A stretch of 64,000 nucleotides of DNA, taken from sequence record OQ561750. One strand, written 5' to 3'. Made by a program: the position numbers and the translations under genes. Shown here piece by piece: positions 5,994 to 43,076 of this stretch. Within the stretch, counting starts at the first letter, position 1. Every line of letters starts with the position of its first letter. The stretch is from Escherichia phage LHE83. The notes beneath the pieces are model-generated. The model made no database searches. It was not told the origin of the DNA and saw only the letters and a list, made by a program, of their open reading frames with translations.

Positions 5994-6007
5994 GGGCCTT
6001 GCGGCCC
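5994..6007 (-). terminator. GC hairpin (GGGCC-N4-GGCCC) followed by U-rich tract between gp8 and gp9; possible attenuator/terminator or RNA-stabilising stem
   Basis: Perfect 5-bp GC stem seen directly after gp8 stop on the minus strand; U-run is interrupted so termination efficiency is uncertain. Confidence 0.35.
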
Positions 6008-6010
6008 TTA

Positions 6011-7015
6011 TTAGAATTCGAAGATAATGTTAATTTCTTCTGTTTGGTCCATGGAACGAATAACCGGAGGACGGTTTTCCATATAAATCATTTCACCTGA
6101 ATGGCGGGAGAGGTCTATAACATCATAGTACTCTTTTTCGGCTTTAATGATCGGATCGGATGGGTGAGCTTTAGCTTCTAATGGATTAGAAATTATCGAA
6201 AGCTGTCTAAATCCTTTGTTACCAGGAAGACTAAATTCAGGGAAGTAAACTGAATCTAAGAATGCTTTAAAACGAATGGTATTGCCTTTAATACGATAAA
6301 TCAATCCATAATCGTCTTGCTGCCAAGTAAGATTATTCTCGTATCCCCAACGTTCTGGGTCTTCAGCAATTTCTTCTGGCCATGGAACCACAATATATTC
6401 ATTAGTGCAACGGTTGATACTTACATCAGGTGGAATCTCATACAAATATTCCCAGAGATAACCATCTCCTGTATCAACCATACCTTCCGTATCGCCTTGT
6501 CCTGCAGGGGCTTTAACCGACTGTACATTTGAAGTCCATTTACCACCAAGTTTAATACACTCGGTTTTATTATCAAGGGATAAAATAGAACATGTACCTG
6601 ATTCAGGAATATCTACACAACGATAAACCATCCATCCGGCGCCGACATCAGTACGGTTTTGCGGCTGGCTGTTCGCCACTACAATTTCACCAATCTGGAA
6701 AGTAAACGGGTTAGGATAAGAGGTGTCACCCCAGTCTTTGCGAGGGACAACACAATCCAGCATACTCTTATAAACCTTAACACAACCCATCATGTTGGTC
6801 CAGACGTCTTCTACGCCTTCAGAATCATCTACAGGATATGGTGGTGCAAAACCTGGGTCATTTTCGTTATCGGCCCATGGTCGGGCCCTTCCGAAAGATA
6901 CATACATAGTGTTCTGGTCTTCACCATCACCTATTGTTCTGTAAAAGTTGTACATTTTTTCCGTTCTAAATTTTGAAGTAACAATAGAACGGTAAACTAC
7001 TGTAGAATTAATCAT
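6011..7015 (-). CDS. 8: Baseplate wedge protein gp8
   Basis: 334 aa, identical in length to T4 gp8; synteny. Confidence 0.75.
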   Translation of the reverse strand: MINSTVVYRSIVTSKFRTEKMYNFYRTIGDGEDQNTMYVSFGRARPWADNENDPGFAPPYPVDDSEGVEDVWTNMMGCVKVYKSMLDCVVPRKDWGDTSYPNPFTFQIGEIVVANSQPQNRTDVGAGWMVYRCVDIPESGTCSILSLDNKTECIKLGGKWTSNVQSVKAPAGQGDTEGMVDTGDGYLWEYLYEIPPDVSINRCTNEYIVVPWPEEIAEDPERWGYENNLTWQQDDYGLIYRIKGNTIRFKAFLDSVYFPEFSLPGNKGFRQLSIISNPLEAKAHPSDPIIKAEKEYYDVIDLSRHSGEMIYMENRPPVIRSMDQTEEINIIFEF

Positions 7016-10000
7016 TAATTTTTACCTGAGTTGGAACTTTAGGGTCTCTAGGATTTCCAATATCGTCTTTAAGACGTTTATCAACCAGTGCACGCCAATT
7101 GGCAAAGGTCACAGCACTTTGGTCAAACAATGGACTATGCTTTTTAATACGTTCGTGTGGTAATTGACCTTGGAATACAGAGAAATCGTTTTCTGCATCA
7201 TAATCGGCAGGAATATCAAACGGTTCACCTGCTTTAGGGCCGACGTTGTACATCGGAGCACCTGTACGAGGGTCTCGTTCTATATTACCATCAAAACCTA
7301 TTACAGCAACTCTATCATACCATTCAGATGGCAAACCAGAGTCCCATTTGTAGTTCTTAAGGACATTAATAATAGTTTCTGTATGTTTTAGCGTTAAACC
7401 AACGTTAACAAACATAGAAAGCAAAGTTATACCTACAAAGCCGAAACCTACCGGATGGACAAATCTCAAAACATCGTTGCGATAACGAGAGGTAGGGAGA
7501 TTAGACTTAATAGTCATCACATAATAAGAACGGTTACGGTTGATATAGTCGATATTGTTACTCAAAAGCTCTTTACCACGTACGCCCTGAACAATCATAC
7601 CCTTGAACGAAGTACGTTCAGATTTAATTTCCTGTCCAACTATAAAACGACCTAAAAGATTATGAATGGTTAAACGCCATTGCAGTTTACCATCTTTATA
7701 ATTTCGTTCTATATAAGTAACATTACTACGACCCGTAGGAGTATAAATCGTTTGGCCTACGATATCTTCACTGATATTATCGGATTCTACGATGATATCA
7801 TATTCGATAGAGTTCTTGGACTCGATATCAATTTCGACATCTTCGTTGTAAAGCAATTTAAACAGGAATTTATATGAAGCTTCGGTACCTTTTGTAGACC
7901 AAAAATCGGTTTGGCGCGCCTGGAAAAAACGAACTACTTCGTCGCGTTTTTCTTTCGACAAATAGATATTACGCTTATAGATTTCCGACCACAAATATTC
8001 CCATGAATCTTCTTCACGTGGGTATTGGTTACGAATAAGATTCAACAAATTATTATAGTGTGTACCTGAGCCATCACTAATAAATTGGAGATAGTATTCG
8101 CAGAATTTTTCAAAGTTGCTATCTTGAAGCAAATAACTATCTGGAATCATTTTAACCAGTAAAGGCTGGAGGTCCGGGTCTTGCTCACCAACTTCCTCTT
8201 TGGGTTTCCACGGGATTTCATGTTCTTGGTTTTGCAATTCAGCCGTAAACATAATTTCTTTAGGCTTCCAAATAACACGGACTTCATCGCGTACACGATA
8301 GTCGAATTCAAAATATCCAACCAATTCACCTGTAGATTTGTGAATCATCATTCCGGAAGAATATTTCTTAAAGCCGTTGAACTCTATATTAGGAGATGTG
8401 ACTTTACAAAAACCTTTATTCCAAATCTCATGAACAATACGTTCAGGTGAAGAACCACTGTTCAGGTCGATAATTTTCTGGTATAAAGCATCATTATAAA
8501 CAACCATCGCATGGTCGCTAGTAGTAATCCACGAACGGGTTCCATCGCGTCGAGACCAACTAAAAAATGGTTCGGCATAATAAGCCATACGCCCAGGTTT
8601 AAATTCTTTGAAATCGGATTTAGAGTTAGACCTAAAACTCATCATCAAATAATGTTTATCGTGAATCCATTGTTCATCTTTAACATATTTAACGGCGGAG
8701 GTGACAATTTCAGGGTATTCCAAAGGAAGCTCAGAATCAACCTCTACTTCATATCTAAAGTTGCTTGAACTGAAAAATAATTCCTCTCCATCAGTAGACA
8801 TGCTGGTATATCCATGCTCTATACGACGACGTTCTTCTTCAGTGTTTCCAAATACACGGGTCCATGTATCAGTTGAAGTGTCTAACCAATAAACACCTTT
8901 GGATTCAGAATCAACCACATTGGATTCGACCGTAGGGTCCATTTTTTCTTCTTTAACTTCACCTGTAATTAAAGCAAATGTATGGCCTTGGATAGAATCT
9001 AATTTATAACAAACTGCTTTAGGGTTCCCTGTGATAGTCGAATATCCGCTTTCAAATATCTTCTCTCCATAAGTCGGAGAACTAGGGTCGGTGTCTATAG
9101 GTGCCTCAGATGTTTTTGCTTTATAAACTCTGTCTCTACCTGCAACATAAATGAAATCATCAGAAGCGCATATAGCTTCAGCAATAGTGGAAATAGGCAA
9201 AGGAAGTTTTGCATATGACCCAAATATCTCGATTTCAAATGGAAGGTCGATATCACTACCTATTTTAGCAAATGTTATATCTTGGGAGCTAAAACGGACA
9301 TCATCAGCAGACCAACGAATATCACTTGATTTACGTCCGTAAAATATTTGGTCATAACCTAGAACATACGTAGTAGTTTCAGTTTGGTAATGTGCTGTAC
9401 GCGAAACAGGGTTACCTACTCGGTCATTAAACAAACGGATATAATGCCAGTTCTGCCCTTTATCATTAGAAACCTTAGCAGTACTTTGGAATCTTTCTAA
9501 AAGGTAAAGTACACCACCAAGTTCCATTAAAATAGAACGTTTAGGGTCTTTACAAACCGCTTGGATGCTTCCTTGGATTTCATGGAAACGGTCGGCTTTT
9601 AAAACATAATTTGATATAGATGACAAATGCGAATACGCTGGCGTAAAGTTAAAATCTTCCGTCATTAAGGAAGCCATAATGGCATCGGTATTAAAGTTCA
9701 CATAATTCTGATTATTTTTTGTGAATTTTTCTTCAATAAATTTATTAGACAAAGTGAATTCGCGCATATGCTCAAATGTATATGCGTTGGTAGAGAAAGT
9801 TTCAAATTCTTCAGTGTAAACCCATTCGGACTGCTCAAACCCCTGGGCGGCCACCGCAACTCGCATTTTATAAAATGAATTAGGAGAAATGAATGCCTCT
9901 TCAAACCATTCGTTATTAGGGGTGTAACCTAAATTTCTCCAAAATAATCTATCGTCGGGAATTTCTACACCCGCATCCTTCGTTTGGGCCAGTTCTACGA

Positions 10001-21965: not shown

Positions 21966-22039
21966 GGCCCTGTAGCTCAATGGTTAGCAGCAGTCCCCTC
22001 ATAAGGGAAAGGTTACCGGTTCAAATCCGGTCTGGGCCA
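21966..22039 (+). tRNA. tRNA with anticodon CAU (Met, or Ile2-type reading AUA as in the T4 tRNA-Ile)
   Basis: 74-nt cloverleaf: 7-bp acceptor stem (one U-U mismatch), anticodon loop CUCAUAA, T-arm ACCGG-TTCAAAT-CCGGT; position matches T4 tRNA cluster. Confidence 0.65.
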
Positions 22040-22751: not shown

Positions 22752-22826
22752 GTCCCGCTGGTGTAATGGATAGCATACGATCCTTCTAAGTTTGCGGTCC
22801 TGGTTCGATCCCAGGGCGGGATACCA
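22752..22826 (+). tRNA. tRNA-Arg (anticodon UCU), CCA encoded
   Basis: 75 nt; 7-bp acceptor stem, anticodon loop CUUCUAA, T-arm CCTGG-TTCGATC-CCAGG, 3-prime ACCA. Confidence 0.7.
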
Positions 22827-39957: not shown

Positions 39958-40518
39958 ATGATTATTGAAACAACTGAATTGTTTGGCGAACTGTCCGCTG
40001 AAGTAGTTAATAACGCAATTGAGCTTTCACAAGAAGACGATAAAATCGTACTGACTATCGCTGATATTAAACCGCTTTATGATTTAATGGTTTTAGATAG
40101 ACACGATTATCTTAACGGTCGACATAGCGCTCCTATCGATATCAATGATGGTGTGTTTGCCTATATCTATAAAAATGAAACTGGGTTTAATCTGGAAAAT
40201 GGTATTGAATGTCTGAGCATCAGCGATTCTGATAAATTCTTTGATTGTATTTTCAAACTGTTCCAGGAAGAATGCAAGCCAGAAGTTGAATGGAAAGTCC
40301 CAGGTCAAGATGCACTGATTCGTTCTAGTGAAACGTTTGAAGGCGATGAAGAGGAATTAGATTATAATACTGAACTGACTGTGCTTCAACATCAGGGTCG
40401 TGATTTGCTATCCTTGACCCAAAGACACGATGGTGAAAGTGAAGTGGTATTTACTAAGGATGAGCTCAAAGCTTTAGTCTCTTATCTGAACTCTGTTATC
40501 CCAACTATGAACTCTTAA
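39958..40518 (+). CDS. Hypothetical acidic protein (186 aa)
   Basis: ORF with GAGGAA SD. Confidence 0.45.
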   Translation: MIIETTELFGELSAEVVNNAIELSQEDDKIVLTIADIKPLYDLMVLDRHDYLNGRHSAPIDINDGVFAYIYKNETGFNLENGIECLSISDSDKFFDCIFKLFQEECKPEVEWKVPGQDALIRSSETFEGDEEELDYNTELTVLQHQGRDLLSLTQRHDGESEVVFTKDELKALVSYLNSVIPTMNS

Positions 40519-40528
40519 GGAAAATATT

Positions 40529-40981
40529 ATGATTATCAATGCAAACTCTTGGCACGTTAAATTACACGACCGTTTTTATGACCGTCATTCTCGACCACAC
40601 TCTTTGTGTGCTTACTTCTGGAAAATGGTTTGGGCTTGTTTTGCTTGTGCTGTTGTTGCAGGTAGTACGCTTTTTGGATTAACTGTTGCAGGTGTTGGTG
40701 TATTAGAGCATTTCTTTGTATTAAGTACCCCTGTTCTGTTGAGTCTAGGGTTTGTTTTAGGATTGGTTGCAATAGCTCTTATTATTGCGCTATCCATTGG
40801 TTTGGCATTCGGTGTGATGAATTTACACTCATGGTATGATTTACGTAAAGAAGAAAAGGAATGGCAACTAATTAAAGCTAAACGTGAAGGAAAGGAAATT
40901 AAAGAAAACATTGTTATCCAATATATCAAAGCTCGTAAATCTAAGGTCTGTCCGGTAATCCACTTCGAGGACAAAGAATGA
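40529..40981 (+). CDS. Membrane protein (150 aa)
   Basis: Two or three TM helices (FACAVVAGSTLFGLTVAGVGVL; LLSLGFVLGLVAIALIIALSIGLAFGV). Confidence 0.5.
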   Translation: MIINANSWHVKLHDRFYDRHSRPHSLCAYFWKMVWACFACAVVAGSTLFGLTVAGVGVLEHFFVLSTPVLLSLGFVLGLVAIALIIALSIGLAFGVMNLHSWYDLRKEEKEWQLIKAKREGKEIKENIVIQYIKARKSKVCPVIHFEDKE

Positions 40982-41988
40982 GAACAGTTATGAAAGGCTA
41001 CTTCGGTAGCCACCTTTATGGAACAAGTACTCCAGAATCTGATGTCGATTTTAAAGAAATCTTTGTTCCACATCCGCGTGATATTCTGTTAGGTACGGCT
41101 ATGAACCATACCAACCTGAACACGAATAACACTGCTTCCAAAAACACCAAAGATGATGTAGACCATGAGCTTTACAGTCTGAAATATTTCTTTAAACTAG
41201 CGGCTGAAGGTGAAACCGTTGCTCTGGATATGCTTCACACTCCACCTGAACTAGTGGTTAAATCTGATTTACCTGATGTATGGAAATTTATCCAAGACAA
41301 CCGTTCTCGGTTCTATACAACCAACATGAAAGCCTATTTAGGGTACGTCCGTAAGCAAGCTTCTAAATATGGTGTTAAAGGTTCTCGTCTGGCTGCTCTG
41401 CGTGGTGTACTGGCAATCGTTAACCAGATTCCTGAACAGTGGATTGATTACCAAGAAGATGGTTCTACTAAACAACGTCGCACTAAGGTAGAAGATATCA
41501 AACATCGACTCCCTGAAAATGAGTTCTGTGAATGGGCATTCCATAACCATGAGAAAACAGGTCCTCAAACGTTCTATACTGTTCTCGGACGTAAATACCA
41601 AACCACTCTGTCATTAATCGAGCTCAAGCAATCTCTGAATAAGCTTGATGCCGAATATGGTGAACGTGCTCGTAAGGCTGAAGCTAACGAAGGTATTGAC
41701 TGGAAAGCTCTGAGCCATGCTTATCGTGCTGGTTATCAGTTGAAGGAAATCTATCAAACTGGTGACCTTCAATATCCTTTACGTACAGCGCCGTTTATCC
41801 TTGAAATCAAACAAGGGCTTCATGCTTTTAAAGATGTACAGGCCGAACTTGAAGCTATCGTTGATGAAGTCGAAACTAATGCTATCTGGGCCGCTAAGAA
41901 CGGTATGCCTGAGAAGGTAGACATGAAGTTCTGGGACAAGTTCGTTGAGCAGGTTTACCTAGAAAACCATAACTCGTATTATAAATGA
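40978..41988 (+). CDS. Pol-beta-superfamily nucleotidyltransferase-like protein (336 aa)
   Basis: N-terminal signature FGS-x10-DVD-F (GSHLYGTSTPESDVDF) = hG[GS]x9-13Dh[DE]h; ATGA overlap with upstream gene. Confidence 0.55.
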   Translation: MRTVMKGYFGSHLYGTSTPESDVDFKEIFVPHPRDILLGTAMNHTNLNTNNTASKNTKDDVDHELYSLKYFFKLAAEGETVALDMLHTPPELVVKSDLPDVWKFIQDNRSRFYTTNMKAYLGYVRKQASKYGVKGSRLAALRGVLAIVNQIPEQWIDYQEDGSTKQRRTKVEDIKHRLPENEFCEWAFHNHEKTGPQTFYTVLGRKYQTTLSLIELKQSLNKLDAEYGERARKAEANEGIDWKALSHAYRAGYQLKEIYQTGDLQYPLRTAPFILEIKQGLHAFKDVQAELEAIVDEVETNAIWAAKNGMPEKVDMKFWDKFVEQVYLENHNSYYK

Positions 41989-41992
41989 TAAA

Positions 41993-42010
41993 GGCCTTCG
42001 GGCCTTTTTT
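41993..42010 (+). terminator. Intrinsic terminator (AGGCC-TTCG-GGCCT + T6)
   Basis: Hairpin and T-run immediately after stop. Confidence 0.6.
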
Positions 42011-42029
42011 GGGTTTAGTGCAAAAAAGA

Positions 42030-42058
42030 GTTTACACTCTCGTAGAGCATGTTATTAT
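42030..42058 (+). promoter_or_regulatory. Early promoter (GTTTAC-N17-TATTAT)
   Basis: Hexamers plus GGACCTATCAA box. Confidence 0.5.
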
Positions 42059-42095
42059 GGACCTATCAAATCTACTGAGTGAAATGGAGAATATA

Positions 42096-43076
42096 ATGTT
42101 AACTATCAAAATCAACAAAGGTATCTATCGCGGTAATGTAATCTCTGGTACGTTCATGAGTTCAGGTAAAACCTGGTTCCCTAATAAAATTCATGAATCA
42201 GAAGCTCACCTCGGTGACGGCAAGGTATTCGTACAGATTGATGGTGTTGAACGTGGTGTATGGGTGTTCAAATGTGACGTTGAAATGGAAGGTGCTGAAG
42301 CTCCTGCAGTTGTTACTGAATCCGCTGAAGAAATGAAACATCGCATTAACAAACGTTTTAAAGTAATGAACATGATGACCAACGGAATCATCGATGGTAA
42401 AATTCGTTCCCTTATCATCTCTGGTGCCGCAGGTATTGGTAAAACGTATTCTTTGGATAAAGCATTACAAAATGCCCACGAAAATGAAACTATCGAATAT
42501 AAATCAATCAACGGAAAGATTAGTGGAATCGGTCTTTACGAGCAGCTTTGGAATAACCGCGGCCCTAATAGTGTTCTTCTTATTGATGATGTTGATGTAT
42601 TCTCTGATATGGATATCCTGAACCTGTTAAAAGCAGCATTGGATACCGGTGAAAAACGTAAGGTGTGCTGGAGCACTTCAAGTTCTTACCTCGATGATAA
42701 AAACATCGATAAAGAATTCGAATACGAAGGCACCATCGTGTTCATCACCAACGTTGATATCGACCGTGAATTAGAGCGTGGAACTAAACTTGCTCCACAC
42801 CTCCAGGCTTTAGTATCTCGTTCAGTTTACTTAGACCTCGGAGTTCACTCTAACGAAGAGATTATGGTCCGTGTTGAAGACGTTATCCTGTCCACTGATA
42901 TGATGCAAAACCGTGGTCTGACTGATGCCGAGACTTATCAAGCACTGTCCTGGATGAAGGCTAATGTATCTCGTCTTCGTAACGTATCATTACGTACAGC
43001 TCTTTATCTGGCGGACTTCATTGCCACCGATAAAAATGACTGGAGCGAAATCGCTGAAGTTACACTTCTGAAATAA
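42096..43076 (+). CDS. AAA/P-loop ATPase-like protein (326 aa)
   Basis: Walker A GAAGIGKT and Walker B VLLIDDVD; ATG after GGAGAATATA SD. Confidence 0.55.
   Translation: MLTIKINKGIYRGNVISGTFMSSGKTWFPNKIHESEAHLGDGKVFVQIDGVERGVWVFKCDVEMEGAEAPAVVTESAEEMKHRINKRFKVMNMMTNGIIDGKIRSLIISGAAGIGKTYSLDKALQNAHENETIEYKSINGKISGIGLYEQLWNNRGPNSVLLIDDVDVFSDMDILNLLKAALDTGEKRKVCWSTSSSYLDDKNIDKEFEYEGTIVFITNVDIDRELERGTKLAPHLQALVSRSVYLDLGVHSNEEIMVRVEDVILSTDMMQNRGLTDAETYQALSWMKANVSRLRNVSLRTALYLADFIATDKNDWSEIAEVTLLK

Follow-up and report, generated by a model that had tools for sequence, protein, structure and literature searches.

The window analysed here is a stretch of 64,000 nucleotides from Escherichia phage LHE83 (sequence record OQ561750), and the gene in question is the open reading frame (ORF) at 40978-41988 of its plus strand, which lies between a gene for a membrane protein and a gene for a P-loop protein (Table 1). 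An earlier note, made from the letters of the sequence alone, had described the 336-residue product as a Pol-beta-type nucleotidyltransferase (NTase) of a T4-like phage carrying a G[GS]-x10-DxD signature, and had judged its subfamily to be unrecognisable by eye. The ORF and the signature were both confirmed: the product begins with MRTVMKGYFGSHLYGTSTPESDVDF, and the signature, made up of G10-S11, ten further residues and D22-V-D24, is found in the stretch F9-GSHLYGTSTPESDVD-F25. A 3.1-kb region of the window showed 92-95% DNA identity to the Dhakavirus T4-type phages PSD2002, WG01, IME08 and JS98, and, judged by its sequence, the window is that of a JS98/IME08-like (Dhakavirus) T4-type phage. 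In Dhakavirus phages, to which the DNA identity is about 94%, the gene bears the label nrdC.11 or nucleotidyltransferase. The RefSeq record of IME08 lists mobD.1, a membrane protein, nrdC.11 (as "nucleotidyltransferase") and nrdC.10 in that order, and from this annotation and gene order the ORF is the ortholog of T4 nrdC.11. Its product shares 83.6% amino acid identity with T4 NrdC.11 across all 336 residues, and 98% with NrdC.11 of JS98. It is thus a known and already annotated T4-like gene of a named family, RlaP (Pfam PF10127), which settles the subfamily that had gone unrecognised. What is new in the present analysis is modest, namely a likely third catalytic carboxylate (D62), an insert of about 100 residues that marks a long-form clade, and the tandem arrangement of this gene type with canonical RlaP in bacterial Pnkp/RtcB/Ro60 operons.

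The gene is widespread. Searches with tblastn located nrdC.11 in 1,504 phage records, mostly of the T4 type, and near full length in 1,438 of them, while 2,691 homologs were counted among 90% clusters. When 1.8 billion cluster representatives (50% identity) were searched, 3,185 clusters were matched at E <=1e-3 and 793 at E <=1e-30, nearly all of them 300-350 residues long and aligned end to end with NrdC.11. Since this architecture is common to hundreds of clusters, what had been seen as a "long C-terminal extension" is better regarded as a second domain that is part of the protein throughout a large clade than as an appendage. In the RefSeq annotation of T4 the protein is a "nucleotidyltransferase", and one phage record names it "RNA repair pathway DNA polymerase beta family". 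Many orthologs in GenBank and UniRef are named "thioredoxin", and a few "HNH homing endonuclease", "glutaredoxin" or "ArsR regulator". The thioredoxin label was apparently taken over from nrdC as a gene name, and profile searches gave no thioredoxin-like match for the window protein.

Table 1. Features of the nrdC.11 region of the window and of the bacterial loci compared with it
Feature	Position	Strand	Basis or remark
Membrane protein gene, 150 aa, RB69 ORF104c-like, PHROG 944	40529..40981	+	upstream of nrdC.11
Shine-Dalgarno sequence GAGGA, 6 nt before the nrdC.11 ATG	40967..40971	+	read from the sequence
nrdC.11 ortholog, 336-aa RlaP-family (PF10127) Pol-beta nucleotidyltransferase	40978..41988	+	ATG start; PF10127, PHROG 388, homolog searches
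NTase core (beta/alpha), residues 1 to ~95	40978..41262	+	conservation, hhalign, predicted strands 2-9, 23-30, 44-48, 61-67 (AlphaFold2)
NTase-core site G10-S11	41005-41010	+	
NTase-core site D22-x-D24	41041-41049	+	
NTase-core site D62 (proposed)	41161-41163	+	
NTase-core site D84-M-L	41227-41235	+	
Clade-specific insert of ~100 aa, residues ~136-236: helix, beta-meander (154-208), long helix	41383..41685	+	AlphaFold2, pLDDT 80-98
C-terminal helical bundle	41686..41985	+	motif second only to the active site in conservation: D241-W-K-A-x-S-H247-A-x-R250 ... P267
Intrinsic-terminator-like hairpin AAAGGCCTTCGGGCCTTT (UUCG loop) and T-run	41990..42013	+	two bases past the nrdC.11 stop
Candidate promoter for nrdC.10, sigma-70/T4-early-like, TTTACA-16-(TG)TATTAT	42031..42058	+	consensus match only
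nrdC.10 ortholog, 326-aa P-loop/AAA-like protein, PHROG 1250 (no assigned function)	42096..43076	+	neighbour of nrdC.11
Tandem-RlaP loci L089, L092, L094, L102, L104, L117, L119, L122, L143, L147 and others	~6001-7800 in each		

Family membership, active site and predicted fold

The window protein scored 42.9 bits against PF10127 (gathering cut-off 23, E 6.4e-11) and matched PHROG 388, "nucleotidyltransferase", end to end at 2.6e-133, which upholds the Pol-beta-type assignment of the earlier note; 134 of 136 diverse NrdC.11 homologs matched PF10127 as well, and the identity of the protein as an RlaP is near certain. In an alignment of these 136 members (33-84% identity to the window protein), G10, S21, D22, D24, Y131, H247, R250 and P267 were invariant, and S11, D60, D62, D84, K130, K134, R137, R230 and D241-W-K243 were kept in at least 90%. 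The Pol-beta active-site set, consisting of the G[GS] loop, the DxD and a third conserved Asp, is therefore entirely present in the NrdC.11 clade, and the window protein is probably an active Pol-beta-fold nucleotidyltransferase. A comparison by hhalign with canonical RlaP (~260 residues) gave a probability of 94% across residues 1-130, with D62 aligned to the invariant "LD" Asp of canonical RlaP and D84-M-L to its E-W-L motif. As D62 both aligns with an invariant RlaP Asp and falls in the predicted strand 61-67, it is the best candidate, and most likely the position, of the third catalytic carboxylate, the residue for which structure prediction had been recommended. The C-terminal half and the insert showed no similarity to the C-terminal half of canonical RlaP by hhalign (probabilities <1%), and a proposed equivalence of K243-x3-H247-x2-R250 with the canonical K-x3-Y-x2-R helix was dropped on that account.

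Minimal NTases, MNT antitoxins and CD-NTases had been named as families sharing the signature, and none of them was borne out by profile searches. NTP_transf_2 scored 14.1 bits against a cut-off of 21 and the MntA model 13.2 bits against a cut-off of 60; PADLOC defence models gave no match at E <=0.01, and hence no CD-NTase, and Pfam gave no CD-NTase or SMODS match. A type VII antitoxin of the MNT/MntA kind was rejected because such proteins have some 100-140 residues and are paired with HEPN, whereas the window protein has 336, scores below the cut-offs and has no adjacent HEPN gene. Membership of the CD-NTases was set aside too, there being neither a profile match nor an effector-like conserved neighbour. 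CCA-adding and other class II tRNA nucleotidyltransferases also belong to the Pol-beta superfamily and add nucleotides without a template to tRNA 3'-OH ends. They differ from RlaP in having other C-terminal domains, and RlaP adds any nucleoside monophosphate (NMP) and stops after one or two; the CCA-adding families of Pfam and NCBIfam did not match the window protein.

The fold was predicted with AlphaFold2. An alignment of 25 close T4-like homologs left residues 1-64 with a predicted local distance difference test score (pLDDT) below 50, and it was replaced by the 136 diverse sequences, from which a model with a pLDDT of 94.7 and a predicted template modelling score (pTM) of 0.84 was obtained. 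In the model four parts can be told apart, namely an NTase core from residue 1 to about 95, connecting helices (99-149), a beta-meander (154-208) and a helical bundle (213-335), and the helical C-terminal domain ends in a long helix (316-335). Short phage NTases of 232-234 residues, taken from predicted viral structures, aligned with the model over their whole length (TMt 0.71-0.91) and left about 100 gap columns, indicating that the NrdC.11 type bears an insert of about 100 residues, which may possibly be an RNA-binding module.

With such conservation and such a model, it is highly improbable that the protein is a catalytically dead or structural remnant retained by synteny in a hyperplastic part of the T4-like genome. 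That T4 can do without the gene in the laboratory, and that the region is rich in ORFans and homing endonucleases, would fit a relic; against this, the residues of the active site do not vary among phage and bacterial homologs of 33-98% identity, the full-length protein is kept in ~1,438 phage records, and the fold prediction is confident.

Solved structures offered little guidance. Neither the protein by itself nor either of two profiles gave a meaningful match among PDB sequences, and Foldseek against the PDB returned weak matches only (E 0.014 or worse, TM <0.3). The nearest solved folds were those of Hailong HalB (PDB 9dbh) and the kanamycin nucleotidyltransferase ANT(4') (1kny/6nlt), which share with the window protein a Pol-beta core, a helical domain and template-independent chemistry, but which have 10-13% identity to it, Foldseek E values of at least 0.014, TM below 0.3, no sequence-level match and another gene context. 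They also act on different acceptors, HalB in Tyr-primed dA synthesis and ANT(4') on an aminoglycoside hydroxyl. Membership of HalB was rejected, with 13% identity, no match of either profile to a PDB sequence and no conserved pairing with a membrane protein. A resemblance of this kind might suggest that NrdC.11 transfers nucleotides to a protein or a small molecule, as AMPylators and aminoglycoside NTases do, and that it might for example AMPylate and so neutralise a host toxin or defence effector, as MntA does with HEPN toxins. We regard this as improbable, since resemblances of 9-14% identity and TM <0.3 are common to the whole fold, the MntA score of 13 bits falls short of the cut-off of 60, PADLOC gives no match, there is no conserved toxin-like neighbour, and two Pseudomonas RlaPs left the proteins of E. 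coli unlabelled (PMC12776372).

The locus in T4-type phages

In the window the TGA of the membrane-protein ORF, at 40979-40981, overlaps the ATG of nrdC.11 as ATGA, and this overlap and the GAGGA 6 nt before the ATG agree with the translational coupling proposed in the earlier note. The terminator placed after the gene in that note is also there, as a hairpin with a T-run, called at 41990-42007, whose fold has a free energy of -15.9 kcal/mol and a z of -3.0 against shuffled sequences. The downstream gene had been taken for an independently promoted AAA-type ATPase, and this held in a qualified form: the promoter-like site, a consensus match only, agrees at 10 of 12 positions and has the top sigma-70-like score of the region, and the AAA matches are weak and below Pfam cut-offs. 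With a start at 42096 the nrdC.10 product matches PHROG 1250 end to end. The start at 41985 of the mechanically called ORF would run through the terminator and the promoter and is thus not the real one; the longer RefSeq start of nrdC.10 in IME08 would likewise traverse both, and 42096 suits the family profile exactly. The nrdC.10 product itself has a P-loop, GAAGIGKT, sub-threshold AAA_14, AAA_22 and STAND matches and a weak C-terminal HTH_37 match.

The window gene and T4 nrdC.11 are orthologs of equal length in the same region, between tk/rI/mobD and nrdC.10, and they differ in that the T4 gene adjoins the mobD homing endonuclease, whereas the start of the window gene is overlapped by the membrane-protein gene. 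Among T4-type phages the membrane-protein gene is found directly or closely upstream of nrdC.11 in most loci of at least 51% identity, and in the majority of loci whose NTase identity is about 51% or more nrdC.10 is found in the 6-kb flank, mostly 1-3 kb downstream; many of these loci have ORFs between nrdC.11 and nrdC.10, and about a dozen lack nrdC.10 in the flank. The phage neighbourhood of nrdC.11 is ordinary T4-like synteny. The membrane protein and nrdC.10 were considered as obligate partners and rejected, because bacterial homologs occur without either, the terminator and promoter split off nrdC.10 in the window, and many phages have intervening ORFs.

The same evidence bears on the proposal that the enzyme makes or destroys nucleotide signals, which the earlier note had offered beside the modification of macromolecules. 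An NTase of the CD-NTase or HalB type might synthesise a nucleotide or oligonucleotide signal, or a decoy, perhaps together with the coupled membrane protein, for example by gating or blocking a channel like Hailong HalA. This is very improbable. In addition to the 13% identity to HalB, the two profiles that matched no PDB sequence and the lack of a PADLOC match, the membrane protein is missing beside bacterial homologs, other ORFs intervene in many phages, T4 has a homing endonuclease beside the gene, and the bacterial context is that of RNA repair and not of defence effectors. Of the two functions, the making or destroying of signals is thus left without support, and the modification of macromolecules, in the form of RNA 3' ends, is favoured.

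Several further observations were made on the region. The membrane protein has a basic tail at its C-terminus and a long hydrophobic hairpin, which gives an Oleosin-like match below threshold. The mobD.1 ortholog (39958-40518, plus strand) matches T4_y05I_N at 9.4e-36 and T4_y05I_C at 4.6e-20, which are y05I-like putative transcription-factor domains. Two phage tRNA genes on the plus strand, for tRNA-Met (CAT, 21966-22039) and tRNA-Arg (TCT, 22752-22826), belong to the usual T4-like tRNA cluster. Several close relatives (for example loci L003/JS98 at ~7008-7431, L007, L010 and L012) have some 300-900 extra bases between nrdC.11 and nrdC.10; at that junction the window (41988-42096) holds the terminator and promoter only. 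In the relatives the megablast match falls into two pieces and nrdC.10 begins further along the locus, as would be seen if an indel had occurred there or a small ORF had been inserted. In T4-like phages of Aeromonas and Vibrio (L043-L054, L056-L059, L067 and L073) the nrdC.11 homolog is flanked by NAD+ salvage genes, with a NatV-like NMN-adenylyltransferase/Nudix gene upstream in 13 loci and a NadV/Nampt-like gene downstream in 10 (for example L058:2475-3587 and L067:8417-10015). This flanking may reflect either synteny only or a functional link.

RNA-repair neighbourhoods of bacterial homologs

In bacterial and archaeal genomes or metagenome-assembled genomes, 80 loci with full-length homologs (33-50% identity) were identified, 78 of which could be analysed. 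Their neighbours were detected within a 6-kb radius with hidden Markov models built from recurrent neighbours, and the identities were confirmed by Pfam. An RNA-repair gene was present within 6 kb in 33 of the 78 loci, mostly on the same strand and abutting the NTase gene; the partners were canonical RlaP in 20 loci, the kinase-phosphatase-ligase Pnkp in 9, RtcB in 8 and Ro60/TROVE in 4. Since RNA-repair genes occur about once per genome, this is, by informal reckoning, far above chance. No homolog of nrdC.10 or of the membrane protein was seen beside the bacterial NTase homologs. In the tandem loci the NrdC.11-type gene is followed by a canonical 260-residue RlaP gene on the same strand with a gap of 0-27 nt, often with Pnkp, RtcB or Ro60 in the flank, an arrangement that suggests a division of labour between the two RlaPs.

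Among phages, a few distant loci have an RtcB, Rnl1-like or Pnk-like gene within 3-4 kb of the NrdC.11 homolog. JS98 bears pseT (Pnk), rnlA (Rnl1) and stp elsewhere in its genome than nrdC.11, and pseT and rnlA would supply exactly the 3'-OH/5'-P chemistry that the products of an RlaP need. Canonical RlaP is present in jumbo Pseudomonas and Burkholderia phages, and it was not found by tblastn in Escherichia T4-likes. The two types share PF10127, a homologous NTase core in which the GS, DxD, third Asp and [DE]-[WM]-L motifs correspond, and, as far as the predicted model shows, a two-domain NTase and helical architecture, together with an RNA-repair gene context, which for canonical RlaP includes the rtcB-rlaP-rtcA operons of Pseudomonas. 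They differ in length, the canonical proteins having ~250-260 residues and the NrdC.11 clade ~300-350 with a beta-rich insert of ~100, and in standing side by side in the 20 bacterial loci, which implies distinct roles.

A possible step in tRNA repair

RlaP reportedly owes its name to Burroughs and Aravind, in 2016. What is known of its chemistry comes from a preprint of December 2025 on two Pseudomonas RlaPs (from fluorescens and aeruginosa) encoded between rtcB and rtcA, in which T4 NrdC.11 was placed in cluster 5 of a sequence similarity network of PF10127 (PMC12776372). It was established that among the macromolecules of E. coli these enzymes label RNA only, and not DNA or protein, that rRNA-, tRNA- and fragment-sized RNAs are all labelled, and that all four nucleoside triphosphates (NTPs) are used (PMC12776372). 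A 3'-OH is required, and one or two NMPs or deoxynucleoside monophosphates are added with little base specificity, after which the enzyme stops; Mn2+ is preferred as the metal ion and, in nicked tRNA mimics, the 5' half as the acceptor, and the aminoacylation of a tRNA missing one anticodon-loop nucleotide was partly restored (PMC12776372). The crystal structure of PfRlaP shows an N-terminal NTase and a C-terminal helical domain with a cleft between them, the last helix being packed back (PMC12776372). RloC excises the wobble nucleotide, and it was proposed in 2008 that this defeats T4 Pnk/Rnl1 repair. The authors of the preprint propose RlaP as an antidote to "smart" ribotoxins such as RloC (PMC12776372), and the same prediction of RNA repair was made for phage RlaPs by Iyer et al. 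(2021).

We propose that the window protein is an active RlaP-family enzyme that adds the missing nucleotide or nucleotides to broken tRNA ends before they are resealed by the Pnk and Rnl1 of the phage, a reading to which we give a probability of about 0.6. In such a scheme D22, D24 and D62 would hold two metal ions, probably Mn2+, and the 3'-OH of a broken RNA would be extended by one or two NMPs, drawn from NTPs in a template-independent reaction. The substrate would most likely be the 5' half of a tRNA whose anticodon loop has been cut by a host anticodon nuclease. Pnk (pseT) would first create the 3'-OH and 5'-P ends, NrdC.11 would act between the Pnk and Rnl1 steps of T4-type tRNA repair, and Rnl1 (rnlA) would seal the break last, so that the nucleotide removed by RloC-like enzymes would be restored. 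The RlaP activity of the phage enzyme is inferred here from its distant paralogs, and tRNA halves as its physiological substrate and Pnk and Rnl1 as its partners are suggested by gene context.

Several points weigh against this proposal. The PF10127 match of the window protein is confined to residues 8-134 (profile positions 25-142 of 249), whereas canonical 260-residue RlaPs match the model over its full length at 6.8e-81, and with no profile similarity to canonical RlaP in the C-terminal half the choice of substrate could differ. The occurrence of the NrdC.11 type beside canonical RlaP in 20 loci indicates that the two are not functionally redundant, and with the divergent C-terminal half and the insert this tandem is a further warning that substrate specificity may not be the same. 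In the window nrdC.11 has no adjoining RNA-repair gene, its neighbours being the membrane protein and the AAA-like protein. The enrichment of 33 in 78 bacterial neighbourhoods is an informal estimate, and metagenome bins make up many of the "bacterial" loci, some of them perhaps phage contigs. The preprint tags T4 NrdC.11 as of "unknown function" (PMC12776372). Finally, the T4 segment nrdC.11-mobD.3 can be deleted with the phage remaining viable on laboratory hosts, although dispensability on such hosts is as expected for a counter-defence gene.

An alternative is an RNA 3'-end nucleotidyltransferase that serves other ends, for example by mending trimmed tRNA 3'-CCA, or by giving RNAs of the host or the phage a short tail as a mark for decay or protection. 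Such a role is consistent with the loose specificity of RlaP, which labels rRNA-, tRNA- and fragment-sized RNAs with all four NTPs, with the clade's own C-terminal module and ~100-residue insert, and with its coexistence with canonical RlaP in the same operon, which suggests another substrate or end. We nevertheless think it unlikely, as the healing and sealing partners Pnkp and RtcB, and Ro60, in bacteria point to the repair of breaks and not to tailing, and the characterised RlaPs stop after 1-2 nt. The alternatives are progressively less supported, from other RNA ends through protein or small-molecule nucleotidylation and signal synthesis to a relic.

Within the proposed repair of broken tRNAs a more specific idea may be put forward tentatively, although we hold it to be doubtful. 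NrdC.11-type proteins might form a distinct long-form branch of RlaP in which the insert and the divergent helical domain confer a non-redundant activity, such as the refilling of an excised wobble position, and in T4-like phages this could be the missing third enzyme that works with Pnk and Rnl1 against RloC. A non-redundant activity of the long form would explain why bacteria keep it in tandem with canonical RlaP beside Pnkp, RtcB and Ro60. For a phage answer to RloC-type nucleases NrdC.11 is the obvious candidate, being present in about 1,500 phages and suited to the 3'-OH/5'-P chemistry by which Pnk and Rnl1 work. If this is true, a third, "fill-in" step would be added to the textbook pathway of T4 tRNA repair, and a widespread gene would gain a phenotype.

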